Source of the DNA: Psammoneis japonica
Taxonomy: Eukaryota
Direction of reading: 5' to 3'
NCBI GenBank assembly: GCA_008632985.1
Contig: QPGO01000095.1
Coordinates: forward strand, 183,681 to 247,680
Length of the DNA stretch: 64,000 bases
Shown here in pieces: positions 2,829 to 55,072 of this stretch. The notes under the pieces are model-generated. The model had not been told where the DNA came from. It searched no databases and worked only from the letters and a program-made list of their open reading frames with translations. The position numbers were made by a program, and so were the translations under genes. How positions within the stretch are numbered: the first letter of the stretch is position 1; each line of letters opens with the position of its first letter.

Positions 2829-3104
2829 TGACAGAAATTGAAGGCAAATGGCAAGAATTCAAACAACAACTCCTTGCTGCTGTCTAAATGGCAGATGAGT
2901 CTCCGCTCAGAGACCGTTGCAGGAGCCGAAAGACGTGTAAGTCAGTGCAATCGGGCCACTGTTGTCATTCTTGTGAGCCTTGTGGCTCGAAAGCAAACTG
3001 CATCGCTCGTGAACGCGCGGAACCAAAGCACACAAAACTGTGCACGGTAAACTAAACAGCGCGCGATGCTTCGCGCGCACCTGAATCCTGTTCAAATCCT
3101 GTCA
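2829..3104 (-). repeat. 3' LTR (outer) of copia element 1, heavily TpA-mutated
   Basis: Aligns end to end with 10088-10363; 15 differences by eye. Confidence 0.95.
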
Positions 3105-4275
3105 CTCCCCAGTTTGCTTGAGGAGCCACAGAAACAGATTCGACTTCGGATGGAATGAAGTTCCAGAACATGAGGGGGCGGAGAAGGTCCCAGATTTGGG
3201 AGTGACCCCAATGCTTGCTGAGAATGTCAGCAGGGTTGCGGGAGCCTTCGATGAAGTGGAACTCAAGGTGACCAGAGGCAATTGCCTCACGCACATGGTG
3301 GAACGACAGTGCGGTGTGTCGCTTGTGTAACTTGGAGTGCGGGATGGTGGCACTGTCTACAACCGACTTGTTGTCACCGAACATGTAACTGACGTTACGG
3401 ATCGGGACGCCAAGGCAGCGCAGGGTGATGCGCAGGTCGACAATCTGCTCAACACAAGTCCTTGCGGCAACAAATTCAGACCCGCAGGTCGCAGTCTCCA
3501 CGGTGGCTTGTTTCTTAGAGAACCAATCAGCCGGGAATTTGTTGAGGAAGTGGAGCATTCCCATGACAGAGCGTCCGGTGAGCATGCAATGGTGCAAGTT
3601 TGCATCGACGTAGTGGGTGGCAGTGACGAACTTGCCAAGGGGCGGTGGAGCGTCCTTCGGGATCATCTCTTCTGCTTCACCACACACGGAATGCATCCAT
3701 TCACAGGCCGGAGCAGGGAGATCCGAATGGTCGGGCTCTTCCGCACGAACGCGGAGAGCACCGTGTCGCATCTTGGAGAGGTGCCCACAGACGCGTTTGG
3801 CACGATCCAAGTGGCCTTGACGGGGCGCAGCTCGGAAGCTAGAGAGTGACATGACGGCCGTGGCAATGTCAATTCGACCAAGGGACACTGCCCATTGGAG
3901 TGAACCAACAAGAGACTGGAACTTGTGAATGCCATCGGGTCCCAGCAGTTCGGAAGTGTCCAGTTCGGGGTGGTCACCCTTCTCTAGAGGTGACAGGGCG
4001 TTGGTGGCAGGTTTCTCCCCAAACAGTCGGGCACAGCTGTCGACCATGCGCTCGATGTACTTGCGCGGAGACAGGCACAAGGTTCCGTCGGGTTCCCGGG
4101 AAAAGTCGCAACCCAGATGGAACTCAATGGGTCCCGCACCCTTGAGCTTGAACTTGTGCTTTTCCGTGAGAGTGTCGACGAAGGATTGAGGGTCCTTCAT
4201 GGCAATGGCGAGGTCATCCACATGGGCGGCAATGCATTCATGGTGGTCGCCGTTCCTGCGCATCCAAATGTCGGG
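3105..4275 (-). pseudogene. Extra copy of the 3' part of pol (RT C-terminus + RNase H)
   Basis: Near-identical to 4552-5722; RT motif reads HVDD instead of YVDD; ends abruptly at the internal LTR. Confidence 0.9.
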
Positions 4276-4551
4276 TGACTGAAAATGAAGGCAAATGGCA
4301 AGAATTCAAACAACAGCTCCTTGCTGCTGTCTAAATGGCAGATGAGTCTCCGCTCAGAGACCGTTGCAGGAGCCGAAAGACGTGCAAGTCGGTATGATCG
4401 GGCTGCTGTTGTCATTCTTGTGAGCCTTGTGGCTCGAAAGCAAACTACATCGCGCGTGAACGCGCGGAACTAAAGCACACAAAGCTGTGCACGGTAAACT
4501 AAACAGTGCACGATACTTCGCGTGCACCCAAATCCTGTTCAAATCCTGTCA
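4276..4551 (-). repeat. Internal (second 3'-type) LTR of copia element 1
   Basis: Full 276-bp LTR copy adjoined by the PPT complement CTCCCCAG at 4552. Confidence 0.92.
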
Positions 4552-7500
4552 CTCCCCAGTTTGCTTGAGGAGCCACAGAAACAGATTCGACTTCGGATGG
4601 AATGAAGTTCCAGAACATGAGGGGGCGGAGAAGGTCCCAGATTTGGGAGCAACCCCAATGCTTGCTGAGAATGTCAGCAGGGTTGCGGGAGCCTTCGATG
4701 AAGTGGAACTCAAGGTGACCAGAGGCAATTGCCTCACGCACACGGTGGAACGACAGTGCGGTGTGTCGCTTGTGTAACTTGGAGTGCGGGATGGTGGCAC
4801 TGTCTACAACCGACTTGTTGTCACCGAACATGTAACTGACGTTACGGATCGGGACGCGAAGGCAGCGCAGGGTGATGCGCAGGTCGATGATCTGCTCAAC
4901 ACAAGTCCTTGCGGCAACAAATTCAGACCCGCAGGTCGCAGTCTCCACGGTGGCTTGTTTCTTAGAGAACCAATCAGCCGGGAATTTGTTGAGGAAGTGG
5001 AGCATTCCCATGACAGAGCGTCCGGTGAGCATGCAATGGTGCAAGTTTGCATCGACGTAGTGGGTGGCAGTGACGAATTTGCCAAGGGGCGGTGGAGCAT
5101 CCTTCGGGATCATCTCTTCTGCTTCACCATGCACGGAATGCATCCATTCACAGGCCGGAGCAGGGAGATCCGAATGGTCGGGCTCTTCCGTACGAACGCG
5201 GAGAGCACCGTGTCGCATCTTGGAGAGGCACCCACAGACGCGTTTGGCACGATCCAAGTGGCCTTGACGGGGCGCAGCTCGGAAGCTAGAGAGTGACATG
5301 ACGGCCGTGGCAATGTCAATTCGACCAAGGGACACTGCCCATTGGAGTGAACCAACAAGAGACTGGAACTTGTGAATGCCATCGGGTCCCAGCAGTTCGG
5401 AAGTGTCCAGTTCGGGGTGGTCACCCTTCTCTAGAGGTGACAGGGCGTTGGTGGCAGGTTTCTCCCCAAACAGTCGGGCATGGCTGTCGACCATGCGCTC
5501 GATGTACTTGCGCGGAGACAGGCACAAGGTTCCGTCGGGTTCCCGGGAAAAGTCGCAACCCAGATGGAACTCAATGGGTCCCGCACCCTTGAGCTTGAAC
5601 TTGTGCTTTTCCGTGAGAGTGTCGACGAAAGATTGAGGGTCCTTCATGGCAATGGCGAGGTCATCCACATAAACGGCAATGCACTCACAGTGGTCGCCGT
5701 TCCTGCGCATCCAAATGTCGGGTTCGGCGCGGCAGGGGAAGAAGCCTTCAGCTCGCAGGCAGTCGGCGAAGCGCTCGTGCCAGCGGAGACCGGAGCTGCG
5801 CAGTCCATGCAGTGCCTTGTGGATGACAAGGATGTGTCCTTCGAGTTTGCCAAACTCGGGTCCAGCTGCAATGTAAAGCTTCTCCTTGGTGGTGGCTTCA
5901 AGGCAGGCATTGCCAATGTCGGTGGCCCATGTCTCCAACTCGTTGAGTTCGGCCAGGAAAATCATCAGCCGAAGGCCATGGAGGGAGACTGCTCCGGAGC
6001 AGACACTGTCGACAGGTGCGTCCGTGAGGTGCCCGTCGGCTGCGAGTCGTGCCTTGTGGCGACCGTCGTGTTTCACGTCGCACGCTAGGTGCACTCGGAT
6101 CTTCTTGTGTCCCGCAGGAGGAGTGGAAGACTTGAAGGGCCCGCAGTCATGGAAGACTTCGTATTCGTCGAGTTGGTCCATCTCGAGATTAGTTGCGTCT
6201 CCCCACTTGCGGTTGCCGTTGCGTTCGTCTAGTGACATGGCGTGTTTGCAGTTCCGGGGAACTTCGCATCCACACTTGCAGCGAGGTGCAGTGCGGAAGG
6301 AGCGAAGCTTAGCTTGGTTGCTGGTGAGGCTCACTTTGCCAGCTGGAGATGAAGAGGGCTCGTAGGATCCCGAGCACCTTGTTGCTGATCTCAACTTGAG
6401 CACGGTCGCCAATGAGTTTGGATGGGGCACCACGCTCACGGATCTGATCCTTGAGTGTGTTGACAAACTCTTTGTCCGTCTTGGTGCCGCAGACGTCAGT
6501 GACGGTAGACTCGGTGCCAACAAACAGTTGGGTGCTGGTGCAACCAGAGTCGACGGCCGGGGTGTCGGCACAAACGGTGTCAGTGGCGACAGGCTCGTTG
6601 CGGCGGTGCACATTAAGGGCGGGGTTGGGTGATTTGTAGGCCTTGCGAAGGTGTGTACTGGCGGGCATGCAGGCGTGCTGCGTGGTGCAGTCAAAAGCAC
6701 GACGGACCGTGTCGGCAGGTAAGAAGCCAAAGCAAGGCCGAAGAGACTCGAAGGGGGGGTCCTTGGGCTGTACAGTGCGCTCCGGAGGTGGAACATTGTC
6801 GCCCTGGGGGCCAATCGCATGCAGATGACACTCGTAGAACACGTCGTCGTTCGGAATGAGGTGATCATCGAGGGCGGATGCGTGATCGGCAGACAAGGAA
6901 GCGGACATGATGGTCTCGTTGACAACGACACGATGACGGCAGTTGCCGCATTCGTCAAATGGGTTGGCAGTGGGATCGTCCTGTGGGTCAGAGATCACGT
7001 CGCACCACTGGTCGTCGTCAGTGACAGAGTGATCGAGGACGGAAGGGTCCCATGTGTCATCACCGGTGAGGATGACATGGGGCAGGGTGTCCCATTCGGC
7101 GTCAGTGCAAGGTCGCATGGCAACATGAGGCAGGCCAGCCTTGATGTCAATGGGGATGACATAGCCATCAGGAGTGGCAATACGTTGCAAGCCGTTGGGC
7201 ACCTTGACAGAGCGATCGTTGACATCCTGTTTGTGCCATTCGAGCTGGCCGCAGGAATGGATGGTCTTGCCCTTTCCCGTGTGAGCGCACTGATGGAGGA
7301 TGGCGATGACGGGACCACGCTGGGTCTCAACAACGGCACCAGCGGTGACAATGGGGATGTCCACCAATTGATGATCGTCAATGCCCTGAACGTCGACTTG
7401 GCGAGAGGTGCGTGCAATGACGCGAACGTCGTCGCCAGCAATGCCGCCGTTGGCCCCACGATCAACTAGAGCACCAGTGCGTGTGGAGCGATGAGCAGAG

Positions 7501-9158
7501 GCAGAGTAAATGACATTGTGGTTGTTGACGCGGCGGCAAGTGCGGCCGTTAAGTTCCATGTCATCTGCAGAAGCTGGCGGGGTAGAGGAAGCGGCGGATG
7601 GCCCCGGTCGACTGGCATTGTGGGCTTGGTTAGGAGACAACAGACGTTGCAGATCACCGGGTGGCAGTGGCTTGCGCTTGGTGAGGTGCGCCAGGATGGG
7701 ATTGTCCGAAGTGGCGTCCACATGTGGAGCGGAGTCACCAGAGTCAGCAGGAGTCGTGTTGGACAAGTTGACATCACCGTCACTCCCAAGGTGTTGGTCG
7801 TGAAGGTTGGCCGTAACAGACTCATGGTGGTTGCTGGCTCGCGGGTTGCGGGGAGGTGGACGAGAATGCTCAAGGATGATCGCCTTGGAGGAATCGGGCA
7901 ACGAATCCCAGAGCCGTTGGTGGTCGGGAGGGAGACGTCTCCATTGGACACCGGTGAGGCTGGGACCGCGGGTGCAGGCAGCATTGGCTTGAAGGACGTC
8001 AACGTCGCTGTCAATGTCGTAGAACACATCGTCGGACGGTTCCTCGGAGCAGACGTCGTGTGCGCACATGGCGCGTCGGGGAGCTCGAGGTGTCGTCTTG
8101 GGTTGAAACGTGCTGTCGTGCTGAGCTGCCGCGGAGAGGAGCAAGCCACAGTGTTGATCGCATGTGAGGCTCTTGCCACTCTGCGTGCGATGCTGATCAG
8201 CTTGGTTCTTGACAGCACGGAGTTCCTTGACAGGGTGCACGGCATTCTCGAGCATGACGCGCTTCTGTCCTTCAGAGAAGTGGTCACTGGCCGGGATGAG
8301 TGCCTCGCACTTGCGCAACTGATCTTGCCAATGAAGGATGAACCCGTGGGTCGGACCTTTCCAAGTGCCATCACCAAGACGCGCGGTGGTGAGGCACGTG
8401 AGCAGGGTGGAGGACTCGACAGATGCGCGAGTGGAGGCAAGCGCGTGCTCAGACAAGGAGCGGTGGACGGTCTGTGCGTCAGAAGACCCCACATTTTCGC
8501 GGATGAGAGCCTTGCCCTTGTCGGTGAGAAGGATGCGTTCGAAGATGGCGAACACGCACTTTTGCTGTTCAGCAAAGAGCAGTTTGTCTTTGGGGCTGGT
8601 CGGTTTGTACGACGAGTCTAGAATGCACTCGACGTCTTGGGCACGGGCTTGTGCCACAAGTGAGGTGTGCCAAGTGTGCCACTGCTTGTCGGATTTGAGA
8701 GCCATGAAAGCGGTGGGATCATGCTTGATGCCTCGCTTGAAGTCCCGCACCGGGTCGCGTGCCTTGGTCGGGTTGGTGACATGTGGAGGTGCAAGGGGTG
8801 AGCTGCCGATGGACACAGAAGACATGCAGTCGGGGCTGAGGCGGTGGGCAAGGAACTCGTCATGCGCGAACAAAGAGGAGTCGTTGGCAACGTCAAGACC
8901 TTTGTGTGCTTTAACAATGTACAGACTGACCAGTGCTGCCAACATGTTCTCATGGCCACGGGGCAAAGGGATTGCATTGGCGCCGTTGTCGCACTCAAGC
9001 GAGTCGATTTGGGGCGGCATGAACGTGAATGGTTCCTGATGTGAGTCCGTGCCGTCTTGGGCCAAAGCCAAACAAAGAGGACTCCCAGCACCTTGGGCAA
9101 GCACGGTTCCAACCACATGCTCGAAACCATCGGTTTGTTGCTGACGAGTGAGAACCAT
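4499..9158 (-). pseudogene. copia gag-pol of element 1 (gag, protease, truncated integrase, RT, RNase H)
   Basis: Probable start MVLTRQQQ at 9158; protease LVDRGANGG; RT YVDD; RNase H YVDANL...GDNKSVV...NPADILSK. About 1010 bp of the integrase region is missing relative to element 2 (junction ~6317-6320), with a frameshift. Confidence 0.92.
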
Positions 9159-10087
9159 GGCAGACAAAAATGGCGTCAGGACAATCAATTCTGGTTGGGA
9201 AGCGAAGGCAGACTCGAAACTTGGGTGAGAACAGACTTGACTTGAAATCTTGAACTGTCTTAAAATCAGAAGTCGCCGGGCTTTGTTGTCCCGTTCGTTG
9301 TTGAGTGCTAAACTTCCCATCCGGTCCGCAGAGTTGTGCCGGCACGTCCAAACCCGCAGCCAACGGCGCTTTGGGTTGCTTGCGAGCGGAGTGGCGGGTT
9401 GTAAACCCCTGCAGGTGAGCTGACTGGAGGTGGACAAGACCCCCGAACCGTTCTCATTTTATGTTGGTTGGATTTCCCGATCAGGCTGGCCAGTTGACGC
9501 AGGCGTCAGGCGCTGTGGACGAACGAACAAACGTGGGAAAGCACTCTCGCCCCAACGCAGGCTGCAACCACGGCTGCTTGCTCTCACAGTCGTCCTCGTG
9601 GACCTGGCAGAACTGCAGAGCACCAGTAGTCCGGGGTAGATCAGGTACAATGGACTCGGTGTGCCTGTAGAGTGGCAGCAAAACCGCAGTCCGAAGAGTG
9701 GGTGCAGGTTCTTGGCCGTGAAGACACACACATGTATATATATATATGTCTTCAGCGACGAAGATCCTTGAATATGTAGGGTTCTTGACCGTTAACCGAT
9801 GAATGGGTATATCAAGGGATGAGGATCAAGGATAGACTTGGATATGACCGTTGAATGTATGTCTTCAGCGGTCAAAAGTAGTATAATCAATCCAGATATC
9901 CAGCGGTAAGGAGACTTGACGGTGACGTTAACTTCCTGCCGATGCCCTGGTATCGAATGCGCGTAGACTTGCCGATGTATGTAGAATATATACGGAGGTC
10001 CACGTAGAATTGAAATAGCGTCGTTGGTAAATCAACGACGACGATGGCGGTTGCTCAATGGGTTGACAATGAGCAAGACTGTTAATC

Positions 10088-10363
10088 TGACAGAAATTGA
10101 AGGCAAATGGCAAGAATTCAAACAATAACTCCTTACTGCTGTCTAAATAGCAGATGAGTCTCCGCTCAGAGACCGTTACAGGAGCCGAAAGACGTGTAAG
10201 TCGGTATAATCGGGCTACTGTTATTATTCTTGTGAGCCTTGTGGCTCGAAAGCAAACTACATCGCGCGTGAACGCGCGGAACTAAAGCACACAAAACTGT
10301 GCACGGTAAACTAAACAGCGCGCGATACTTCGCGCGCACCTAAATCCTGTTCAAATCCTGTCA
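10088..10363 (-). repeat. 5' LTR of copia element 1, apparently unmutated (17 TpA present)
   Basis: TGACAG...CTGTCA, flanked by TSD TCTCC and a PBS-like sequence. Confidence 0.95.
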
Positions 10364-12638
10364 TCTCCTGCAGCAATCTACCAACCTTTTCAGATGTCCA
10401 ATTTGATGTCACTGCATGTGTCTCAGTTCTGGTCAGGTTGGGTCCCTTCACCCAGTTGCCTGCACATGCACAGTGCGCAAATCTCAAACCAGCCCCCCCC
10501 CCCACATGCTGGGTTGCCACACCACTTTGGGGAACACAGAAATTGCATCAGAACCTGCAACAGCCTTCTGATTTCTGTTTCCACATTTGTTTGTCAACCA
10601 TGACCATAAATGATGATTCAGGCAGCTGTTTGATGTGCTCCCAACTTGACAACCAACTTTGCTGCCACAAAGCAGCCACACTCTCTTTTCCTTCAGCACA
10701 TTTTTTACAAACAAAACACTCCACCACCTGTGTGCACAGCACCACACCTTCCCCACAGCACCAACTCAAACAGACAAGAAAATTTGCATGCACCACACAC
10801 CACTTGCTGTGCACCAGCCACCCCCACAGCACAAGAGGACAAAAAGCTGCCCCCACTTAAGATCCACTCTGTCAACTCAAAAGCATTTGCCATTCTTGTC
10901 TTGGTTTGAATGACATTTGTCAGTTCCTGTCTGGTCTGCGCAGGAACCCATTGGAAGAAGGAGGTCCTTCTCTGGATCAAAATCTTTGGGGAGATTGTTG
11001 CAAGTGCTCGAGCACCATTTGTTGCATGCTGTTTCTCCAAGGTTGCAGCCATCAATGGGAACAAACTTGCAGAACCCTTCCTGCATCAATTTTGTTGAGA
11101 TTGTGATGGTCTTCAAAAAGGGAGTGGGCAAGCATGTCCCTCAACATGTCCTGCATTTGGGAACAAGCAACTTGGCACCCACAAATGATGCATGTGTCTG
11201 GCTTGGGCATGTGCACCTTCTTGTGGAGGTTTCTCACCAACCTTTTGCACCAAAGATCCTTGGATGCATTGAACTCTTTTTCTTGATGCAGAGCTGTTGC
11301 AGCAGGGTGAGCAGCAGATTGTCATAAAATCCTCTTGTGGCACTGGAATTGTCACACAGCCAGTGTGATCAGCTGAAGAGAAGCTTCCTCAGCCAATGCA
11401 AAGCTGCACCCAAGTGGGGAGGATGACTGTTCCCTGCCAACATCAGAGGGTTCTGCCAGCAAAACATGCCCTTCATTGATGCCACAATTGTGGGCAGAGT
11501 TGGTGCTGGGAAACATCTCAAAAAGAGACAGCTCATTCTTGTTGTCTTCATCAGAAAGTTGGTGTCAGTGGCATCATCATCTTGTTCATTGGATGCTCTG
11601 TTCTCAACATCCAAATCAGCAGCAGCAAAGTCAACATCATGTCCTGCCATTGCACCAGGGGACAAAAGGGAGGAAACAGCTGAAGCCCCAGAGTGGGGGA
11701 GGTGATGTTGGAGCTGTCCAAAGTGTTTCCAGAGGTGCCAACAGAGATGAAGCAAAATTTGCAAGAGGACAACAGTGAGGACTCCTTGTCCTGTTGTTGA
11801 TGAACATTCAACACAGTGGCTTGGGACAGCATGCCCAAATCACTGGCCATGACATTCACACACCCAATTTGGTTGGGGCTTGAAGTGGCAATGGCAGGCA
11901 CAAACCATGTGCAAGGATCAAATTGCAGGGGGGGGGGCAACCAAGATCAACTCAAACAAAAGGAAAATTGTTGGAAGCAAGTGAACTGATTGATTTCAAA
12001 TCAGATTGTTGAGCAAGCATTGGTGTTGATTGAGAAAGCATGTGCACCCCAGCTGGACAGACACAATTGTTGAACAACTGGAAAACAGAATTTGAAAATT
12101 TGGACATTCAGACATTCAGTCAAAGGAAATTGAATTGTTTTTGAAACTTGGGTGAGTAAATTCAAATCACACAAAAGAAGTGAACATCAAAGAATGCACA
12201 AAATCAATGACAATCTAATCTTCATGTCAGAAGATTTGCAAATGGAGAAGCACTGGGAAAACAAACCACACAAAAAACAATGTGGAGACATGGCAACCAT
12301 GGTGCAGAGGGAGATCAATCCAGCTGAGTGGGTGGACAATGACAAGAAGGTGGGCAGAGACACAGTCAAGGTGAGAGACCATGTCAAAGAAAAGGTGTTT
12401 CTCAGCATCACATTTGTGTTTGATGCAATGCAGTTGGAGGAGACCGGCGTGCTGCACAGAGACTGCACCCAGAATTGTGGACCAACGTCAATGGATGGAA
12501 TGCTTGTGGAGCTTCCAGAGGCAAAGAAGAAGACATGCCTGCATTTCCTGCAGATGAAAATGAAACAACAAACCAGACTGCACCAGGACTGGCTGGCAAT
12601 GAAGCAATCCAATTGCCCCATGCAACAACAGATTTTGG

Positions 12639-14610: not shown

Positions 14611-16120
14611 ATTTTCCAATGTGTGCTTCTGCGTGATCACAGGCTCAAGTTCAAGAAATGGGCTGGCATGTCACCTCAATGGAAAAATGTTCAACATGCA
14701 CAACTCAGGATGATTTTACATGTGCTGAATTGCAGTCTTTTTGAAAAACATTTGGTCCATCATTTGTCCATCAGATTGTGGACTTTGGTGACCCCACATG
14801 CCTTTTTCACCACAACACAGCATGACACAATGGAGCCGTCATGCCATCACAATTTTGAGCACAATGGAAGGTGGGGCATTGGTTGCCAATGATTGCATTG
14901 GTCCCTTTTGACACTTGAAAGGCTTGAATGTGTTGTCGTCAACCAATGCCCCACCTTCCTTCATTGCAAAAATCCCATCTCTTTTTTGCCATGGCCATGC
15001 CATGCACCAAACGTTGTGTGATCTTATGAGCGATGACAAGGTGCTTGCATCTCTGCATGACCCAGCACTTGTCATTTGAATTTCCAATTTTCTCACACCA
15101 ACACAATCAACCATCATCATTGTTCCTGTGGCCATGGCACCCAGCAAGAAAAAGAGCAGCACTGCAGGAAAGAAAAAAGTGGTTGCCCCATTAAAAAAAG
15201 AGTTGACAATGCTCTCATTCTTTTGACAGCACACGTCTTGGCAAGCTCTGATGGGAAATGGCCAAGTGCAGGATGCATTCACTGTGTGCTCTAGAACAGT
15301 GGCATTCCAGGCAGAACAATGAACCAAAAGTGACATGTTGGATGCAATCCAGAAGGGATCTGGATCCAAGGGCTTGGTTGCATTTTGCAGAAAGTCCAGT
15401 GACAATGAAAGGTGCCACCATTCATTGTGATTTGAACCCAGTCCTGATGCTCCAAATCTCAAGCCATTGTTCATGTTGAATCATTCTGGGTCAACTTGTC
15501 AGCATGTGGTTTGTGTGATTCCCTTGTTGAGTTTGTTGATGCTCACATTGCACAATCCACCATCAGGTCATGTGACAAGGTGGATGCCAGCCACTGCTGA
15601 TGAGAAAGCTCCTGTTGCACCTGTTGCCAATGAGCCTCACAATGACTTGATGCCATGCCCTGGTTGGGGTGGAGAGAAGCACAAGCAAGTGACATTGATG
15701 TCTGTTCAAGACAACTTGGAGGAAATGGAAGAGCAGTCTGGAAATCAAAATGGAGCAATGTGTTTGTGGCAATTGTGACTGTGGCGGCATCAATTTTTTG
15801 AATCACTTGGGCAGAAGCTTCACTCTCAATGTTGGGTGGAATGTCATCATGTTCTTCAAATCATCCTCTTCTTCAACCTCTTCAGATGACTCAGCTTCTT
15901 CTGGCACAGTCATCATGGCAAACAACAGTGCTCTGCACTTCAGTGTTGGAGGGAGAAAAGATGATGGCAATTCCCAGACTGCACGTAATTTCAGCACTGA
16001 AATATGCACAGACAATGCAGCAAAAAAATGCATGGGCCAACCCATCTTCATTTCTTGAACTTGAGCCCACACCTTGCCTGTGGCAGGATCAGCATTGCTG
16101 TGGACATCCTGCAGACACAC

Positions 16121-17490: not shown

Positions 17491-17499
17491 AGGGACACC

Positions 17500-23430: not shown

Positions 23431-23450
23431 AAACCATGGGGATGAGTGGT

Positions 23451-26493: not shown

Positions 26494-26528
<35 letters not shown>

Positions 26529-43611: not shown

Positions 43612-46032
43612 CTACTCAATCGAAAAAACAGTTCCCGCCATGGTCACGGCCACCTTCAACTTTTCTTCGAGATCATTCTTGGAGTGGTACATCGGAAGAT
43701 CAATTCGATTGAAGCAGGTGCTTCCGATACAAGAAAGAAAGAAACAGCGTTATTCAATGCCCTGTAATAAGTCGCGATTCCAGTCGCAGCTACACACAAG
43801 TCGAACTACTTACTGTGCACGAGGGTAAAGGCAGTCACCCAGGGGGACACCGTGGATCGTAAACTTTCGAATATTCCCATCGACGCCAGGCAAGACACCA
43901 AACCCTCTTGCTGAAACGCCCGACGTCCCGGTAACAAATTGAAGCAGTCGAGCCTTCATTTCATGATCAAAATCTGACACCACCTCCCAGAACCAAATGC
44001 ATGCAGGATGACTGGGATTGTCTTCGTATGCGCCTGAATACTCTGTGTTTGCTTTCCAATCCCTCATGTCGATTTCGGGCATACCGCAAATGAGCAACTC
44101 CAATTCTTGAAAGTCAAAGACGGTCAAAAGTGGCTCCGGAATGACATCAAAGAATCCAAGGAGCAACTCGTTCAGTTGCGGTTTGACTACATCGAGCAAC
44201 TTGTATTTGAGACAAGCTTCCAAGTATTCAGGAAAATTGTCATTGTTCAGTTCAATGTCTGAACCACCCGGAATTAGCTCGATTTCTTCTTTCTTCCCAA
44301 AGACATCTGTAGTGACGGAGAAGGTTTGGTACAATAATGACAAATCCTCGCCATTGGCTACCATTCTTTCAAGCTCTTTGAGGCTGTTGTAATACTCTTC
44401 ATCGACTCTCTCAAGATCTGCAAAGGTGACAGGCCAGCCAAGAAGATGCTTGTACATATGTTGAACCATGTGACCGGAACAAAGCCGGTTATCACCGTCA
44501 AACAGAGCCTTACCCATGACACGACCCAAGAAGCGAAAGTAATCCAAGTGTTCCTCGTAACAAAACGCTGTTGACGCGGGCACGAGGATTCAGTTGTAAG
44601 CACTTGCGCGCAAAGAACAGGAACGAACCAACAACACCTTCGAACGAAGCATACAGAGATGCTCACCTGACGCAGGATTAACTTGCATGGACATTTGATT
44701 GACCGCACTGGATTGCCAAAGGCCCAAGTCGGGATCAAAAATCTTCTTGGTTACTTGGTGAAACCAATCTCTTGCCACACCGCCGGCATCTATACCGATC
44801 TCTCCGATAAAACTAAATCGCCACAACTTACGCAAATCAGTGCGACTCAAACTCATCACAGCATTGATGGAGTCTGCCAACAAACAGTCTCGACGCACGT
44901 TTATTTGCATGTGGCCTTCGTCCCAATCCATGCGCAGCTGATTGCAAGTAGCTTGGAACCACTTGGCCTTTTCCTCGAATGGCTTGCTTTGAGCGGCCGC
45001 AATGTCCTTGTAAGAAACCAATTTTTTGCCGCGTGCATTCTTGATACTGGAGTCTACCACTCCTTCGCTAGCGGCCACCAGGCTAATCCTGCCGGTTCGC
45101 AGAAACGGATCGTGACCACGGCTCAAAAATTCCAGTTTGCGTACATAGGCAGAATTCTTGGTGTTGAATCGATGATTGGTTTCGAATTGTCCTTGACTGT
45201 CCACACGGACCCACTGAAACCTTAAATCGGACAATCGTAATGTACGTGTCCATCCATCCTTGTCATAAGAGAGTCGAGTTTGGGCAACAGCGCTTCTACC
45301 TTTGAAAGAAGACTGCATACGTACTTCCTTTGGTACCTTGAAGCGAATCCGTTGTCCAGGCACCGCATTCATTGGACATGTTACCAGGATCCGGGCACCT
45401 CCAGCCACCAGAGGAAAGGGAGCACCCGGTCTGACCCCTCGAGGAACCTTGACTTCATACAACACCATACCATCATTATTCTGGGGAGCTGGAGTGGGGG
45501 CGGGAGGCGACTCCTCGTCCGGTTTCCGAGTAGGCGGGGGCATGGTGATTCGAACCTGTGTGCCCGCAGAAGCGCCCGAAGGACACGTTACCATTGTAAC
45601 CGTTTTCTGTCCCTGAACCTTGACTGGGAATAGTGCTCCAGGCAAAACACCCTCGGGAATTGTCACCATGTAGGTGTTTCTATCATTGGTCAGGCTACTT
45701 TGGGGGAGGTGAGTAGCCGGAGGTGGATTGGGAATGCAAGGTGATGGCTTGCCGCTGCTGTTGCTCGTCGCAGTCGAGCTCCCTGTGCTGCCGCTATCAA
45801 AACTACCGCCTTCATTATTACTATTCCCTTTTTGTGCTGGCATGGCTGAAAGTCGAAGTGTCTCTCCCGGACTCCAATCCGGTGGACAGCGAACCCGAAG
45901 CGTGAACTCGTCACCGGGATTCACATTGCCGGGCACCGTCACATGTAACACAGTGCCAATTTCAGCGCTATCATCGACGTTGATGTCACTATGTTTCTTG
46001 ATTGGCTTTTTTGGTCTTCTATTGCGGAACAT
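43612..46032 (-). CDS. NEDD4-like HECT E3 ubiquitin ligase; exons 46032-44667, 44567-43814, 43720-43612
   Basis: HECT motifs FIGEIGIDAGGVARDWF, RFLGRVMGKALFD, RLLQFVTGTS. Splicing restores YPRAHTCFNRIDLP with the catalytic Cys. N-terminal VxVPxGVxPG repeats. Confidence 0.92.
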
Positions 46033-46544
46033 GATGATGAGAGACTCTTTCTTCTCTCGAGCTTTTTTCACTTTGTAGTGTTCACATTATGATGACGATG
46101 CGCGTTTCAAAAATTTTGAAACGCGAATCGATTCACAATAATCATTTTTCATTCCGATGAGTCGAGTCGTGGATTGTGGATGACGATTGATTATGAATCC
46201 GCGGATCAAATTATAGAGTCCACTGTTTTGCCATGAATACAGCGGCTTTGGTATGGAGGTGATGGTAAAGATCCCATAGTGTTGTAGATTGTAGATAGTG
46301 TGCACGCACCATTGTCCATTGGCGAATGAAATTGAAAATGAATTATTGTGATGGTGTCGTCCGTCGTCTGCGTGCTGATGACTTCGTCCGTCCATCGCCA
46401 CAGGACTTGGATGACGTCAACCTGACGTATGAGACGTGCCTTGCGTTGAGACGTGCGTGGCCCCCCTGCTCTTTGCCGAAAAAAAGAGGTTTCTTCAGAA
46501 GTCAAGACCTGCCAAGTTGGGAGTGGTGGCGAATGTGTAGTTTC

Positions 46545-47957
46545 CAGCTTTGGATCATGCAAGTGGTGCCTTTCAGAAAACTGGTCAGTGTGTTTGTGCT
46601 GTTCTCTTCTTGTGTGCCCAGCAGGGTGCCTCTCCTCCTGCCTCTCCCCCAGACCTTGCACAACAATCAGGCGCCCTTTCCAGCTTCGCTGCTCCTCTCA
46701 TCATTGTTCATTTGTGCTTCAAGCACAAACTGCACAAGCTTGTGTGTTTGCTGCTGGGAGCACCTGCTGACACTCACATCATCTTGCATGGGCGCACACA
46801 CCATCTCCTCTGCTTTTTGTGTGGCCAGCCAGAAAAGGCAAAAAAGTTGATTTGATTTTCCTTCCCTCTGAATTTTGCTGTTGTTGCTGCTGCTGTCTCT
46901 TTTTCCCTCCAGCTCTTTCCAAGTTTTAGCAGATCTGTGCTTGCAACAGCCTTCCCTTTTTGAAGAGCATTTTCTTTGTTGTGCTGCTCACCCCTTGTTG
47001 CTCTTTGTGTGTGTGTGTGTGTGTGTTGCAGCAAGACAAGCTTGTGTGTGTGCTCTCTCTCTCTCTCCAGGAGAGCAAAAAATGGCAACCTGCCAAATCC
47101 CTCTTAGGATGTGTTCCAGCCACACTTGAAAAAAGTGCAAAAAATGAACTTCTTTTTGGGCAAATGCAGATTTTGCTTGGCTGCAAAAAACTTGGGAATG
47201 AACTTGTTGCAAACCCAAAGCAGTGTGCCACGCATGCTGACAAGACCTGCCAGAGTGCACCCAAACAAGTTGTCTCTCTTCATTTCCTGTTCACAAAGCC
47301 AGTGCTCTTTGGGTGGCAAAAATTGGTGCTTTGTCTTCAGCATTTGCAGCAAAAATGTTTGGGAGAGCCCCGCAGCAGAGAGCCACAGGCACAAAGGACT
47401 CTTTGCTGCTTGGCCAGAGCTTTTTTTTTAACCACACAGGAAGAAGAAAAAGCTGCCGCTGATGTGCCCACAGCCAAAAGTGAAATTGCTCACAAATGAG
47501 TCAGCAAAGAAGAAGATCCAGAGAGGAGGCCCACCCTGTTGGCCACCTTGCTCTTTTTCTTGCTCACTTTTCTCTCACATCACTTTCTTGCCACAAAGCA
47601 GTGCACAAAATGTGCTGACGGGCCTGCTCCAGCTCCAGGTGACACGCACAGGTTCGATTTTCATCACTGGCCTGTTTTTGCATTTGGCCCAATGAACTCC
47701 TTCAAAATCAAGTTTTTTCCCAAATCAAAGGGTGAGTGCACACAAAACACACGGGGGCGTGTGTTTTGTCTGCGGCACTCACACCTTTCGATTTTCGAAA
47801 CGATCAAATTTGAGTGAGTTTGGTGCACCAAACTGCGCAGAAAATTGGCCTCTCACGTGATGGATTTCTCATCACCTGGGGCTGGAACAGGCTGTCGGGA
47901 ACTTTGCTTTTCGCTGTCATCCCAGATCACTGGCTGCTGTCTCCTTTGTGAAGAGTG
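46545..47957. other. TpA-depleted degenerate repeat-like block flanking copia element 2
   Basis: Very few TA (seen at ~46927, ~47105, ~47429); no recognisable protein. Confidence 0.6.
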
Positions 47958-47962
47958 GCACT

Positions 47963-50900
47963 TGACAGAAATTGAAGGCAAATGGCAAGAATTCAAACAA
48001 CAACTCCTTGCTGCTGTCCAAATGGCAGATGAGTCTCCGCTCAGAGACCGTTGCAGGAGCCGAAAGACGTGCAAGTCGGCATGATCGGGCTACTGTTGTC
48101 ATTCTTGTGAGCCTTGTGGCTCGAAAGCAAACTACATCGCGCGTGAACGCGCGGAACTAAAGCACACAAAACTGTGCACGGCAAACTAAACAGCGCGCGA
48201 TGCTTCACGCGCACCCAAATCCTGTTCAAATCCTGTCACTCCCCAGTTTGCTTGAGGAGCCACAGAAACAGATTCGACTTCGGATGGAATGAAGTTCCAG
48301 AACATGAGGGGGCGGAGAAGGTCCCAGATTTGGGAGCAACCCCAATGCTTGCTGAGAATGTCAGCAGGGTTGCGGGAACCTTCGATGAAGTGGAACTCAA
48401 GGCAACCAGAGGCAATTGCCTCACGCACACGGTGGAACGACAGTGCGGTGTGTCGCTTGTGTAACTTGGAGTGCGGGATGGTGGCACTGTCTACAACCGA
48501 CTTGTTGTCACCGAACATGTAACTAACGTTGCGGATCGGGACGCCAAGGCAGCGCAGGGTGATGCGCAGGTCGACAATCTGCTCAACACAAGTCCTTGCG
48601 GCAACAAATTCAGACCCGTAGGTCGCAGTCTCCACGGTGGCTTGTTTCTTAGAGAACCAATCAGCCGGGAATTTGTTGAGGAAGTGGAGCATTCCCATGA
48701 CAGAGCGTCCGGTGAGCATGCAATGGTGCAAGTTTGCACCGACGTAGTGGGTGGCAGTGACGAACTTGCCAAGGGGCGGTGGAGCGTCCTTCGGGATCAT
48801 CTCTTCTGCTTCACCACACACGGAATGCATCCATTCACAGGCCGGAGCAGGGAGATCCGAATAGTCGGGCTCTTCCGTGCGAACGTGGAGAGCACCGTGT
48901 CGCATCTTGGAGAGGTGCCCACAGACGCGTTTGGCACGATCCAAGTGGCCTTGACGGGGCACAGCTCGGAAGCTAGAGAGTGACATGACGGCCGTGGCAA
49001 TGTCAATTCGACCAAGGGACACTGCCCATTGGAGTGAACCAACAAGAGACTGGAACTTGTGAATGCCATCGGGTCCCAGCAGTTCGGAAGTGTCCAGTTC
49101 GGGGTGGTCACCCTTCTCTAGAGGTGACAGGGCGTTGGTGGTGGGTTTCTCCCCAAACAGTCGGGCATAGCTGTCGACCATGTGCTCGATGTACTTGCGC
49201 GGAGACAGGCACAAGGTTCCGTCGGGTTCCCGGGAAAAGTCACAACCCAGATGGAACTCAATGGGTCCCGCACCCTTGAGCTTGAACTTGTGCTTTTCCG
49301 TGAGAGTGTCGACGAAAGATTGAGGGTCCTTCATGGCAATGGCGAGGTCATCCACATAAACGGCAATGTGTTCACAGTGGTCGCCGTTCCTGCGCATCCA
49401 AATGTCGGGTTCGGCGCGGCAGGGGAAGAAGCCTTCAGCTCGCAGGCAGTCGGCGAAGCGCTCGTGCCAGCGGAGACCGGAGCTGCGCAGTCCACACAGT
49501 GCCTTGTGGATGACAAGGATGTGCCCTTCGAGTTTGCCGAACTCGGGTCCAGCTACAATGTAAAGCTTCTCCTTGGTGGTGGCTTCAAGGCAGGCATTGC
49601 CAATGTCGGTGGCCCATGTCTCCAACTCGTTGAGTTCGGCCAGGAAAATCATCAGCCGAAGGCCACGGAGGGAGACTACTCCGGAGTAGACACTGTCGAC
49701 AGGTACGTCCGTGAGGTGCCTGTCGGCTACGAGTCGTGCCTTGTGGCGACCGTCGTGTTTCACGTCGTACACTGGGTGCACTCGGATCTTCTTGTGTCCC
49801 GCAGGAGGAGTGGAAGATTTGGAGGGCCCGCAGTCATGGAAGACTTCGTATTCGTCGAGTTGGTCCATCTCGAGATTAGTTGCGTCTCCCCACTTGCGGT
49901 TGCCGTTGCGTTCATCTAGTGACATGGCGTGTTTGCAGTTCCGGGGAACTTCGCATCCATGCTTGTAGCGAGGTGCAGTGCGGAAGGAGCGAAGCTTGGC
50001 TTGGTTGGCCATGCGAAATAGCTTCTTTTGGCGCCTCGCGATGGTGCGGAACCGCTTCCATCCATCCGTGTCGAGGAGTCCGTTCTCTCGTGCATAGATG
50101 GCACAGGTGACGGGGTCGTCCTTGGCAATGATGGCAAGAGGCTCGGACGTGATCTCCCCACTTTCCCATTCAAGCATGATGTTGCAGCTGGAGCCTTTCC
50201 AGGTTGGGTCGTGAGGCTTCAGAGGTCCTTCGTGCGACACGATGCGTCGAAATTTCCAAACAGTGGTGTCTTCGTCTTCTTGCTCAATGTGATTCATGAT
50301 GTCATTGCAGGCAAGGACTTCCTCGCATTCGTCATTGTTGACAGAGCAGACGAACTTAGTGAGCTCGGGATTGCCGTTCACTTTCCATTCGTGGTCTTCG
50401 ACGGCCTTGACGATGCAAGCTCTGTGGCATTGTCCGTCCTCTTGTGGCTGCATGAGGAAGGTACGTCCAATGATGTCTTGCGGATCGAAAACTGGCATCT
50501 TGGGTGTCCTGATCTCCCCATCAGGAGAGTTGACGGGGTTGTTGTCATGGCAAGATTTGATGATGGGTTCAGGTGGCTCCCCATCAGGAGGATCAAGACG
50601 CAGGTTTCGAACGGCAGGATCGGGGGTAGCGGAGCGGACGTTGGACCGGTGGAGGATCTTCTGAGTCTCGTCAGATAGAATCTTGAAGGTCATCTGGTGG
50701 CCGACGTGCTCAGCAATGCCAACGAAGCGTCCACGCAACTCACGGGATTCGGACGGCCAATCGGAGTCATCGAGGTGGAAGTACACGGGTTCCCACCAGT
50801 GAAAGCGAAGCAACGGGCTGATGTCCGGGGTGGAGCCAGTGAGAGTCTCGAGGGGCGTGCGCCAGTGGAGACGTGGGGACGCTGCATGGTTGAGTGTGAA

Positions 50901-53900
50901 GCACACGCACATGAGCGCCAGCAGCCATGCATGGGCGGGCGAACCAAAACGATCCATGACAGTGTTTGCCATGCGCTTCACGGTCTGGTGTCGACGTTCG
51001 GCAAAGTTTTGGTGTTGCTGGTGAGGCTCACTTTGCCAGCTAGAGATGAATGGGGCGCGTAGGATCCCGAGCACTTTGTTGCTGATCTCAACTTGAGCAC
51101 GGTCGCTAATGAGTTTGGATGGGGCACCACGTTCACGGATCTGATCCTTGAGTGTGTTGACAAACTCTTTGTCCGTCTCAGTGCCGCAGACGTCAGTGAC
51201 GGTAGACTCGGTGCCAACAAACAGTTGGGCGCTGGTGCAACCAGAGTCGACGGCCGGGGTGTCGGCATAAACGGTGTCAGTGGCGACAGGCTCGTTGCGG
51301 CGGTGCACATTAAGGGCGGGGTTGGGTGATTTGCAGGCCTTGCGAAGGTGTGCACCGGCGGGCATGCGGGCGCACTGCGTGGTGCAGTCAAAAGTGCGAC
51401 GGACCGCATCGGTGGGCAAGAAGCCAAAGTGAGGCCGAAGAGACTCGAAGGGGGGGTCCTTGGGCTGTGCAGTGCGCTCCGGAGGTGGAACGTCATTGCC
51501 CTGGGGGCCAATCGCATGCAGATGACACTCGTAGAACACGTCGTCGTTCGGAATGAGGTGATCATCGAGGACGGACGCGTGATCGGCAGACAAGGAAGCG
51601 GACATGATGGTCTCGTTGACAACGACACGATGACGGCAGTTGCCGCACTCGTCAAACAGGTTGGCAGTGGGATCGTCCTGCAGGTCAGAGATCGCGTCGC
51701 ACCACTGGTCGTCGTCAGTGACAGAGTGATCGAGGACGGAAGGGTCCCATGTGTCATCACCGGTGAGGATGACATGGGGCAGGGTGTCCCATTCGGCGTC
51801 AGTGCAAGGTCGCATGGCAACATGAGGCAGGCCAGCCTTGATGTCAATGGGGATGACATGGCCATCAGGAGTGGCAACACGTTGCAAGCCGTTGGGCACC
51901 TTGACAGAGCGATCGTTGACATCCTGTTTGTGCCATTCGAGCTGGCCGCAGGAATGGATGGTCTTGCCCTTTCCCGTGTGTGCGCACTGATGGAGGATGG
52001 CGATGACGGGACCACGCTGGGTCTCAATGACGGCACCAGCTGTGACAATGGGGATGTCCACCAATTGATGATCGTCAATGCCCTGAACGTCGACTTGGCG
52101 AGAGGTGCGTGCAATGACGCGAACGTCGTCGCCAGCAATGCCGCCGTTGGCCCCACGATCGACTAGAGCGCCAGTGCGTGTGGATCGATGAGCAGAGGCA
52201 GAGCAAATGACATTGTGGTTGTTGACGCGGCGGCAAGTGCGGCCGTTAAGTTCCATGTCATCTGCAGAAGCTGGCGGGGTAGAGGAAGCGGCGGATGGCC
52301 CCGGTCGACTGGCATTGGGGGCTTGGTCAGGAGACAACAGATGTTGCAGATCACCGGGTGGCAGTGGCTTGCGCTTGGTGAGGTGCGCCAGGATGGGGTC
52401 ATCCGAAGTGGCGTCCACATGTGGGGCGGAGTCACCAGAGTCAGCAGGAGTCGTGTTGGACAAGTTGACATCACCGTCACTCCCAAGGCGTTGGTCGTGA
52501 AGGTTGGCCGTAACAGACTCATGGCAGTTGCTGGCTCGCGGGTTGCGGGGAGGTGGACGAGAATGCTCAAGGATGATCGCCTTGGAGGAATCGGGCAACG
52601 AATCCCAGAGCCGTTGGTGGTCGGGAGGGAGACGTCTCCATTGGACACCGGTGAGGCTGGGACCGCGGGTGTGGGCAGCATTGGCTTGAAGGACGTCAAC
52701 GTCGCTGTCAATGTCGTAGAACACATCGTCGGACGGTTCCTCGGAGCAGACGTCGTGTGCGCATGTGGCGCATCGGGGAGCTCGAGGTGTCGTCTTGGGT
52801 CGAAACGTGCTGTCGCACTGAGCTGCCGCGGAGAGGAGCAAGCCACAGTGTTGATCGCATGTGAGGCTCTTGCCACTCTGCGTGCGATGCTGATCAGCTT
52901 GGTTCTTGACAGCACGGAGTTCCTCGACAGGGTGCACGGCATTCTCGAGCATGACGCGCTTCTGTCCTTCAGAGAAGTGGTCACTGGCCGGGATGAGTGC
53001 CTCGCACTTGCGCAACTGATCTTGCCAATGAAGGATGAACCCGTGGGTCGGACCTTTCCAAGTGCCATCACCAAGACGCGCGGTGGTGAGGTGCGTGAGC
53101 AGGGTGGAGGACTCGATGGATGCGCGGGTGGAGGCAAGCGCGTGCTCAGACAAGGAGCGGCAGACGGTCTGTGCGTCAGAAGACCCCACATTTTCGCGAA
53201 TGAGAGCCTTGCCCTTGTCGGTGAGAAGGATGCGTTCGAAGACGGCGAACATGCACTTTTGCTGTTCAGCAAAGAGCAGTTTGTCTTCGGGGGTGGTCGG
53301 TTTGTACGACGAGTCTAGAATGCACTCGACGTCTTGGGCGCGGGCTTGTGCCACAAGTGAGGTGTGCCAAGTGTGCCACTGCTTGTCGGATTTGAGAGCC
53401 GTGAAAGCGGTGGGATCACGCTTGATGCCTCGCTTGAAGTCCCGCACCGGGTCGCGTGCCTTGGTCGGGTTGGTGACATGTGGAGGTGCAAAGGGGTGAG
53501 CTGCCGATGGACACAGAAGACATGCAGTCGGGGCTGAGGCGGCAGGCAAGGAACTCGTCATGCGCGAACAAAGAGGAGTCGTTGGCAACGTCAAGACCTT
53601 TGTGTGCTTTAACAATGCACAGACTGACCAGTGCTGCTAACATGTTCTTATGACCACGGGGCAAAGGGATTACATTGGTGCCGTTGTCGCACTCAAGCGA
53701 GTCGATTTGGGACGGCATGAATGTGAACAGTTCCTGATGCGAGTCCGTGCCGTCTTGGGCCAAAGCCAAACGAAGAGGACTCCCAGCACCTTGGGCAAGC
53801 ATGGTTCCAACCACGTGCTCGAAACCATCGGTTTGTTGCTGACGAGTGAGAACCATGGCAGACAAAAGTGGTGTCAGGACAATCAATTCTGGTTGGGAAG

Positions 53901-55072
53901 CCAAGGTAGACTCGAAACTTGGGTGAGAGTGGACTTGACTTGAAATGGACTTGACTTGAAATCTTGAACTATCTTAAAATCAGAAGTCACCGGGCTTTGT
54001 CATCCCGTTCGTTGTTTGGGTGCTAAACTTCCTGTCCGGTCCGTAGAGTTGTGCCGGCACGTCCGAACCCGCAGCCAGCGGCGCTTTGGGTTGCTTGCGA
54101 GCGGAGCAGCGGGTTGTAAACCCCTGCAGGTAAGCTGACTGGAGGTGGACAAGACCCCCGAACCGTTCTCATTTTGTGTCGGTTGGATTTCCCGATCAGG
54201 CTGGCCAGTTGACGCAGGCGTCAGGCGCTGTGGACGAACGAACAAACGCGGGAAAGCACCCTCGCCCCAACGCAGGCTGCAATCACGGCCACTTGCTCTC
54301 ACAGTCATCCTCGTGGACCTAGTAGAACTGCAGAGCACCAGTGGTCCGGGGCAGATCAGGTACAATGGACTCGGTGTGCTTGTAGAGTGATGGCAAAACC
54401 GCAGTCCGAAGAGTGGGTACAGGTTCTTGGCCGTGAAGATATGTATATATATACATGTCTTCAGCGACGAAGATCCTTGAATATGCAGGGTTCTTGACCG
54501 TTAACCGATGAATAGGTATATCAAGGGATGAGGATCAAGGATAGACTTGGACATGACCGTTGAATGTATGTCTTCAGCGATCAAAAGTAGTATAATCAAT
54601 CCAGATATCCAGCGGTAAGGAGACTTGACGGTGACGTTAACTTCCTGCCGATGCCCTGGTATTGAATGCGCGTAGACTTGCCGATGTATGTAGAATATAT
54701 ACGGAGGTCCACGTAGAATTGAAATAGCGCCGTTGGTAAATCAACGACGACGATGGCGGTTGCTCAATGGGTTGACAATGAGCAAGACTGTTAATCTGAC
54801 AGAAATTGAAGGCAAATGGCAAGAATTCAAACAATAACTCCTTACTGCTGTCCAAATAGCAGATGAGTCTCCGCTCAGAGACCGTTACAGGAGCCGAAAG
54901 ACGTGTAAGTCGGTATAATCGGGCTACTGTTATTATTCTTGTGAGCCTTGTGGCTCGAAAGCAAACTACATCGCGCGTGAACGCGCGGAACTAAAGCACA
55001 CAAAACTGTGCACGGTAAACTAAACAGCGCGCGATACTTCGCGCGCACCCAAATCCTGTTCAAATCCTGTCA
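47963..55072 (-). mobile_element. Full-length Ty1/copia (CoDi-like) LTR retrotransposon, element 2, same family as element 1
   Basis: 276-bp LTRs at 47963-48238 and 54797-55072; TSD GCACT at 47958-47962 and 55073-55077; 7110 bp long. Confidence 0.97.
48186..53856 (-). pseudogene. copia gag-pol polyprotein (gag-PR-IN-RT-RH), open for ~1780 codons but missense-riddled
   Basis: LVDRGANGG, integrase ATDT...ISDRA...QNFAERR, YVDD. RNase H reads YVGANL (D->G). An extra A near 53491 separates the gag start (53856). Many Tyr->His/Cys changes. Confidence 0.9.

Follow-up and report, generated by a model that had tools for sequence, protein, structure and literature searches.

In a 64,000-nt stretch of the genome of the diatom Psammoneis japonica (assembly GCA_008632985.1, contig QPGO01000095.1, positions 183,681-247,680 of the forward strand), referred to here as the window and numbered from its first nucleotide, two Ty1/copia retrotransposons have lost most of their TpA dinucleotides by conversion to TpG or CpA. 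The same change pervades transposon debris in the window, whereas genes and the 5′ ends of the two elements are spared. The direction of the change, its specificity for TpA, its symmetry between the DNA strands, the independence of the copies, the regional confinement and the spared zone can all be read directly from the data. It is very likely that this TpA-directed hypermutation is a real phenomenon. As the best explanation we propose, with a probability of about 80%, a chromosomal, domain-targeted TpA → TpG/CpA process that acts on silenced selfish DNA of the diatom.

Two Ty1/copia elements with unequal LTRs

Element 1 (2829-10363, 7535 bp) and element 2 (47963-55072, 7110 bp) both lie on the minus strand and have all the hallmarks of Ty1/copia retrotransposons. 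They contain RVT_2 matches, long terminal repeats (LTRs) with TG..CA ends and perfect 5-bp target-site duplications (TCTCC for element 1, GCACT for element 2). Homologues of the two elements are 60-75% identical. Since each element is bordered by its own perfect target-site duplication, the two represent independent integrations. The LTR pair of a retrotransposon is identical at insertion. Together with the intact target-site duplications, this implies that each LTR pair started out identical. Given the orientation of the elements, the TA-rich LTRs at 10088-10363 and 54797-55072 are the 5′ LTRs. Comparison with element 2 by blastn revealed a 1010-bp internal deletion in element 1 near 6317-6320. 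In addition, the last 1448 bp of element 1 are tandemly duplicated with the LTR included (2829-4276 and 4276-5723, 97.1% identical), and element 1 therefore possesses three LTRs, the middle one at 4276-4551.

Alignment of the LTRs showed that the 5′ LTRs are unmutated. The 5′ LTR of element 1 contains 17 TpA and 20 CpG, that of element 2 contains 15 TpA, and the two differ from each other at two sites only. In contrast, the 3′ LTR of element 1 (2829-3104) has lost 13 of the 17 TpA, eight to CA and five to TG in element orientation, along with one CpG, and carries one transversion. Ten of the 17 TpA and three CpG are lost from the middle LTR. The 3′ LTR of element 2 (47963-48238) lacks 11 of the 15 TpA and one CpG. 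All CpG were kept in the 5′ LTRs.

Counted as differences, 15 of 276 sites distinguish 10088-10363 from 2829-3104. Thirteen of them are TA versus TG or CA, one is CG versus CA (plus strand) and one is the transversion. The LTR pair of element 2 shows 12 differences, 11 of which are at TpA, and no difference outside pyrimidine-purine (YR) dinucleotides. The probability that at least 13 of 15 random differences land on the 34 TpA nucleotides of the element 1 pair is 1.2e-10 (binomial). In the LTRs, no A:T site outside TpA has changed. One TATA tetramer has turned into TGCA, CATG and (plus strand) TATG, one form in each mutated LTR and the last of them in the middle LTR. An earlier note on this DNA, made from the sequence by a model, had proposed the hypermutation on the basis of such LTR differences. 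Its counts for both pairs were reproduced by the LTR alignment, and the three derivatives of the TATA tetramer that it had described were seen again.

Element 2 has TG in each of its LTRs at positions 22 and 219 (element orientation), where the 5′ LTR of element 1 has TA. As the TG is common to both LTRs, these losses are older than the insertion and were inherited from a partly mutated source.

Change proceeds from TpA to TpG/CpA

Where TA is present in three or four of the five LTRs and CA or TG in one, the comparison polarises the change as TA → CA/TG. The direction was also read from conserved amino acids. For this, the C-terminal 766 residues of the element 2 frame were aligned with 120 homologues of 60-72% identity, and columns conserved in at least 70% of the homologues were evaluated (386 columns). 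Element 2 departs at 39 of these columns, and 11 of the 39 are replacements of Tyr by Cys (seven) or His (four). Tyr is kept at 11 of 23 conserved Tyr positions, and His or Cys is found at 11 of the 23. In the tandem copies of element 1, conserved Tyr has turned into His or Cys at 16 of 22 and at 10 of 14 positions. Reverse changes were found at none of 38 conserved columns, as 16 His, 4 Cys, 6 Gln and 12 Trp were all kept (Fisher p = 3.2e-6). Moreover, at least three such Tyr losses were seen in none of the 120 homologues. Over the aligned C-terminal part, Tyr accounts for 1.7% of the residues in element 2 compared to a median of 4.9% in the homologues. The entire element 2 frame of 1816 codons, which is open solely for want of TAA and TAG, has a composition of 1.0% Tyr, 5.1% His and 3.1% Cys.

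Individual codons illustrate the pattern. The Tyr codon of the KALYGL motif is TGT in element 2 (49494-49496) and CAT in element 1, and the YVDD motif has CAT for its Tyr in one of the tandem copies of element 1. Among the copies, the variable codon of DS[Y/H/C]ARLF reads TAT, CAT or TGT, and that of HWG[H/C]SQ reads TGC, TGC and CAC. The earlier note had listed these four motifs, and re-reading of the codons proved all of its statements correct. The polarity that it had deduced is likewise backed by the outgroup LTRs and by the one-way replacement of conserved Tyr by His or Cys. Hence, the direction of change is TA → TG/CA, the reverse of repeat-induced point mutation (RIP).

Both strands are hit, independently in each copy

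Elements 1 and 2 differ at 204 aligned positions. These comprise 72 columns belonging to 36 dinucleotides with CA in one element and TG in the other, 52 cases of TA versus TG or CA, and 45 of CG versus TG or CA. The remainder consists of 26 other transitions and 9 transversions. Changes of the type AA → AG or TT → CT are not raised (9 of 204). A CA-versus-TG pair arises only by separate resolution of the self-complementary TA or CG and therefore indicates independent hits. Among the Tyr codons that both elements have lost, six show the same outcome and five a different one. Within element 1, the tandem copies have different TG/CA outcomes at the same ancestral sites, lost Tyr codons included (e.g. 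CAT versus TGT).

Polarisation was possible for 88 losses, 45 of which resulted in CA and 43 in TG on the element sense strand, so that there is no transcript-strand bias. This balance and the copy-specific choice between TG and CA demonstrate independent hits on both DNA strands. The suggestion of the earlier note that the process works on both strands and strikes each copy separately is thus borne out. Editing of the element transcript, against which the note had argued, is ruled out by the asymmetry of the LTRs combined with the two-strand symmetry. The balance between CA and TG likewise rules out editing of a single cDNA strand.

When the 88 losses are read as A → G, the base after the changed A is C (39 cases), G (22), T (15) or A (12). 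The corresponding counts on the other strand are C 13, G 24, T 20 and A 31 (chi-square p = 6e-5). The changed A preferentially precedes C (TAC). T-A-C is the anticodon-loop context of TadA/ADAT substrates, a match to be taken as a lead and not as a test.

Divergence of element 1 from element 2 outside YR dinucleotides is 0.57-0.63%, yet about 75% of TpA is gone. The observed/expected ratio (O/E) of TpA is 0.20 in the element bodies and 0.24-0.25 in the 3′ LTRs. As an indirect ratio, these values suggest that the per-site loss of TpA exceeds background substitution by an order of 100-500 fold. CpG is lost less readily. Based on the 3′ LTR of element 1 (1 of 20 CpG versus 13 of 17 TpA), TpA loss per site is roughly 30 times faster than CpG loss in young elements.

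The 5′ end of the elements is spared

Profiles along the elements displayed a zone at the 5′ end in which TpA is retained. In element positions 1-800, TpA O/E is 0.95-0.96 in element 1 (9564-10363) and 0.91 in element 2 (54273-55072). In both elements, TpA is intact to about 500 bp, partly lost at element-specific sites between 500 and 800 bp, and mostly lost beyond. The spared zone of element 1 sits within a fully depleted domain. Recent replacement of the 5′ end was considered as an explanation and ruled out, because non-YR divergence is equal in the first 800 bp (0.63%) and in the rest (0.57%).

The 3′ LTR was hit although its sequence is the same as that of the spared 5′ LTR, which suggests that repeat homology alone does not define the target. 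As regards sequence duplication, the two LTRs of an element are repeated to the same degree and yet the 5′ LTR is spared; low-copy debris is depleted. TpA and CpG decay coincide at the sub-element scale. Both decays may be guided by a repressive mark that leaves out the promoter-proximal region.

Depleted domains and spared gene islands

Transposon debris amounting to about 24 kb of the window has a TpA O/E of 0.06 and a CpG O/E of 0.14-0.25, with CpA/TpG doubled. One domain of 15,887 bp (10364-26250), delineated by its dinucleotide profile and with its bases confirmed by X1 read contigs, contains 71 TA (O/E 0.063) and 119 CG (O/E 0.138) at normal sequence complexity. Its CpA/TpG O/E of 1.93 is the value expected if all TA and CG became CA or TG, by arithmetic from the genic O/E. 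Dinucleotide profiles revealed further depleted domains at 29251-33250 (TpA O/E 0.062, CpG O/E 0.246) and 36251-38200 (TpA O/E 0.037, CpG O/E 0.219). The left flank of element 1 (2401-2828) is depleted as well, and depletion is partial in the flank of element 2 at 46100-47962 (TpA O/E 0.136, CpG O/E 0.453).

A decayed relic of the Ty3/gypsy type is located at 18859-20634 on the minus strand, as indicated by a Pfam match to RNase H (E = 2e-14). Matches to RVT_1 and RVP_2 in this relic are below the Pfam cut-offs. Word depth in sequencing run X1 climbs to 1200-5200 over the relic (18010-20000). Considering the relic and the raised word depth, the depleted domains are most simply old repeat debris.

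DNA without TpA contains neither TAA nor TAG, and therefore has long stop-free stretches in every frame. Such stretches occur in all six frames of the depleted DNA between 10364 and 38200 and of both elements. Altogether, 78 open reading frames (ORFs) of at least 110 aa were found in about 24 kb of the depleted domains. Comparison of these ORFs with Pfam gave one significant family, the RNase H of the gypsy-type relic.

Genic parts of the window have a CpG O/E near 1 and a TpA O/E of 0.4-1.0. Two spared islands with sharp edges (within about 250 bp) interrupt the depleted DNA, both on the plus strand. The first (26250-29250; CpG O/E about 1, TpA O/E 0.4-0.5) surrounds an ORF with a DUF5898 match (26542-28569), and the second (33250-36250) surrounds a paralogous ORF (33490-35523). 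They were recognised by Pfam matches and dinucleotide profiles, the second also by the tandem duplication described below. The paralogues have 675 and 677 residues and a C-terminal DUF5898 domain, and their CpG and TpA are normal amid depleted surroundings.

A tandem duplication of roughly 7 kb (26452-30514 and 33410-37490) spans the gene island as well as depleted flank and allows a direct comparison of the two. The ORF island (2028 bp) has diverged by 1.3% with a balanced spectrum. In contrast, the depleted flank (1514 bp) has diverged by 6.1% and includes 12 dinucleotides that are CA in one copy and TG in the other.

Confinement to selfish DNA as opposed to genes was assessed inside the 64-kb window. 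The earlier note had placed the process in transposon domains only. One part of this statement stood: genes are spared, as the genic TpA O/E contrasts with 0.20 in the copia bodies and 0.06 in the debris, and the gene islands contrast with their flanks. The other part was too narrow, because whole domains of old debris beyond recognisable transposons are marked, and CpG is lost too. The minus-strand orientation of the elements, the third LTR of element 1 and the roughly 24 kb affected outside the elements were missing from that note.

Read contigs carry the same bases

Four sequencing runs (X1-X4), for which no library type is recorded, come from one sample. X1 was possibly used to build the assembly. 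In 4466 bp of the depleted domain, X1 contigs with single-copy word depth (58-75) showed 12 differences from the window, and in 2823 bp of the genic flank they showed one. Full-depth X1 contigs of 335-1269 bp matched the depleted domain with 0-5 differences each. A miscoding modification on both strands would mix TG and CA at each site and break the contigs. Since this was not seen, the bases are real. The accurate-read contigs of X1 carry the bases of the window in unique sequence, which answers the doubt about base calling raised in the earlier note.

The copia family is very abundant. Its summed word depth in X1, which is not a copy number but suggests hundreds of copies or more, amounts to 4e4 to 1e5 compared to 64 in unique sequence, and 12,263 contigs were aligned. 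X1 contigs differ from the window at 266 places. Among the best-supported 40 of these, 24 lie in element 1, and 19 of the 24 are at YR dinucleotides. Furthermore, single-copy X1 contigs differ at 13550-13551, 12900, 13556, 13834, 16337 and 17152, where CA stands against TG or CG against TG/CA. The decay of YR dinucleotides may be polymorphic between alleles.

Other genes in the window

The best matches of an LMBR1-like ORF (679-2202, 507 residues) are about 60% identical and stem from diatoms, including Nitzschia, Epithemia and Entomoneis. On the minus strand, a HECT ubiquitin-ligase domain (43810-44589) abuts a 498-residue ORF (44590-46086) at a stop codon. Judged by this arrangement, the two probably form a single gene that is split by an intron or a frame break. 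A deaminase-fold domain was detected in none of 16 long ORFs of the window that were scanned against Pfam.

Relation to known mutation systems

The earlier note stated that no eukaryotic system with this spectrum had been described. This was contradicted by a 2026 preprint on TpA hypermutation in Bigelowiella natans (Mettrop et al., bioRxiv 10.64898/2026.01.13.699255), the one direct precedent found. In mutation-accumulation lines of B. natans, 231 of 302 nuclear mutations fell into integrated giant-virus and virophage regions. Almost all were A → G/T → C changes, all were at TpA, and they arose in some lines only, at about 6e-7 per site per generation. This rate is about 1000-fold above the genomic rate, and the mutations occurred in resident chromosomal DNA during vegetative growth. 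Clusters depleted of TpA and enriched in CpA and TpG exist elsewhere in the genome, and TpA-depleted genes show an excess of reverse-transcriptase and DDE domains. For the enzyme, an ADAT2-like protein was proposed, and ADAR and ADAT enzymes were described as preferring U before the edited A (10.64898/2026.01.13.699255).

Both cases share changes that are almost exclusively A → G/T → C, the restriction to TpA, the involvement of both strands, foreign or selfish DNA as the target and a footprint of TpA depletion with enrichment of CpA and TpG. Thus, the diatom bears the same signature in a second lineage, and the signature itself is not unprecedented. The differences concern host and target, as B. 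natans is a chlorarachniophyte (rhizarian) with integrated nucleocytoplasmic large DNA viruses and virophages, whereas here LTR retrotransposons and debris are affected in a diatom (stramenopile). Depletion is far more complete in the window, with an O/E of 0.06-0.2 compared to a rho of 0.45 in the B. natans viral region. CpG is erased in the same domains of the diatom, while the preprint text mentions neither CpG nor diatoms. Sparing of the 5′ LTR and the preference for C after the changed A were observed here, and neither is discussed in that text. On the other hand, the rate was measured directly in B. natans (10.64898/2026.01.13.699255), whereas the ratio of about 100-500 fold given here is derived indirectly from TpA loss and non-YR divergence. 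Full-text literature searches returned no description of TpA hypermutation in diatoms.

Fungal RIP has in common with the process described here that transposon copies are permanently inactivated in place by transitions on both strands, according to a dinucleotide rule and nearly to saturation. However, RIP makes TpA from CpA/TpG and raises the AT content, whereas the process in P. japonica destroys TpA and raises the GC content. RIP also targets duplications, while here a repeated 5′ LTR is spared and single-copy debris is affected. Decay of CpG by deamination of 5-methylcytosine shares the CG → TG/CA changes in the same domains and accounts for the CpG half only. Diatom transposons have been reported to be cytosine-methylated (PMC9998398). 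Editing by APOBEC3 or ADAR resembles the present case in the disabling of retroelements by deaminase-type transitions. Such editing acts on one strand before integration and leaves identical LTRs, whereas the diatom shows hits on both strands, unequal LTRs and changes in flanks that are not retroelements.

Environmental relatives of the elements were examined at 80 metagenome loci with 57-75% protein identity. Their TpA O/E has a median of 0.71 and a minimum of 0.33. None of the 80 loci resembles the element bodies, although hypermutated copies may have been under-sampled, as one of the three search patterns held a Tyr.

Proposed process and alternative explanations

In the process that we propose, A:T would be converted to G:C at TpA on either strand of silenced selfish DNA in the chromosome. 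Each retrotransposon copy would be struck in place after insertion, nearly to completion and at a pace exceeding background substitution by at least about 100-500 fold. Genes, as well as the 5′ LTR and about 500 bp of leader of the same elements, would be left alone. CpG would be lost more slowly in the same domains, as cytosine methylation would predict, and old debris would end up without TpA and CpG and with CpA/TpG doubled. For the targeting step, we see an even chance that a repressive chromatin or methylation state guides the process and that the active promoter-proximal region is excluded. For the chemistry, our confidence is slightly lower than that. It may consist of deamination of A after T, preferentially before C, with a DNA-acting enzyme of the deaminase fold, ADAT2/TadA-like or other, as the leading candidate.

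Several points weigh against this interpretation. The enzyme, methylation and chromatin steps are read from sequence. Nine LTR sites were lost in both 3′ LTRs, and the outcome is the same at seven of them compared to 4.5 expected; this excess is not significant, but it may leave room for some shared history. The CA-versus-TG double differences can derive from CpG and not just from TpA. Events at one site in several copies share their flanks, so that the rows of the context test depend on one another. Both elements have the same orientation, so that the sparing could in principle reflect chromosomal direction and not element polarity. All four sequencing runs stem from a single sample and possibly are those of the assembly itself. 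Finally, an A → G change is at the same time a T → C change of the opposite strand, and sequence cannot separate adenine from thymine chemistry.

The last point opens the way for a chemistry that starts at thymine. A TET/JBP-type oxidase would convert the T of TpA in silenced DNA to 5-hydroxymethyl-uracil (5hmU) or 5-formyl-uracil (5fU), and mispairing with G or faulty glycosylase repair would yield T → C. We consider this unlikely, even though the symmetric outcomes (45:43) agree with it and the changing pyrimidine stands first in both targets, CG and TA. A thymine modification with a preference for TpA is known in dinoflagellates. However, we know of no base of the 5hmU/5fU type in diatoms, and 5hmU is weakly miscoding. 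The TAC preference fits the anticodon-loop context of TadA/ADAT and thus speaks for adenine. The authors of the B. natans study also favour adenine deamination (10.64898/2026.01.13.699255).

Regions of a retroviral genome differ in the time they spend single-stranded during reverse transcription. A clean 5′ LTR and leader followed by a hit body and 3′ LTR resemble such a gradient, as if an APOBEC3-type factor had mutated reverse-transcription intermediates before integration and the LTRs had been unequal at insertion. This is very unlikely, because a single-strand deaminase predicts one polarity, whereas 45 CA and 43 TG were seen. Moreover, the debris and the flank of the tandem duplication decay likewise, after the duplication. 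In B. natans, it is resident chromosomal DNA that acquires the mutations (10.64898/2026.01.13.699255).

A regional effect that coincides with CpG decay might also be produced by a non-targeted bias of repair or polymerases in late-replicating heterochromatin, such as Pol-eta synthesis (WA → WG), T:G glycosylase repair or GC-biased gene conversion. Such a bias is highly improbable as the cause, since AA → AG and TT → CT are not raised and A:T sites outside TpA are unchanged in the LTRs. The size of the excess and the existence of a spared zone inside a depleted domain argue in the same direction. Pol eta-type WA → WG synthesis, one of the candidates named in the earlier note, is disfavoured by the unaffected AA and TT sites.

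An artefact of sequencing or assembly, caused by misreading of a modified base at TpA where the true dinucleotide is TA, would gain from the missing record of the library type and from the origin of the runs in one sample. The chance of this is remote given the full-depth contigs, which contain no mixture of TG and CA. The composition of the debris fits full conversion (CpA/TpG 1.93), and the protein changes are consistent within each copy.

RIP-like C → T change read backwards, with the TA-rich LTRs as the mutated ones, involves the same dinucleotide pair (TA versus CA/TG) and was rejected with near certainty, because the same 13-15 of 35 CA/TG dinucleotides would have had to be hit separately in two independent 5′ LTRs, conserved Tyr changes to His or Cys and never in reverse, and TpA is depleted instead of enriched.

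Implications

The presence of TpA hypermutation in a second, ecologically dominant algal lineage argues that it is a widespread defence and not a curiosity of one species. We tentatively suggest that diatoms, and perhaps stramenopiles, alveolates and rhizarians at large, possess a chromatin-guided DNA adenine deaminase that completely erases TpA from silenced invaders, is read out alongside cytosine methylation and is kept off active promoters. If a deaminase defence is at work, the spared 5′ LTR would mean that targeting relies on the chromatin state or on a nascent transcript in cis, and not on homology.

The diatom provides cleaner natural data, namely nearly saturated young elements with internal controls in the form of the spared 5′ LTR, the tandem copies and the gene islands. 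Strand symmetry, the TAC preference, the overlap with CpG decay and the promoter-proximal exclusion constrain the search for the enzyme.

There are practical consequences for genome analysis. Debris without TAA and TAG gives long false ORFs, which a gene finder would over-call, and dating of insertions by LTR divergence is affected because this divergence is inflated about ten-fold. The finding also bears on models of base-composition evolution. Should the enzyme be a natural adenine deaminase for double-stranded DNA, it would be of interest to base editing. If the interpretation is true, the diatom would have an enzymatic defence that mirrors RIP and raises GC instead of AT.

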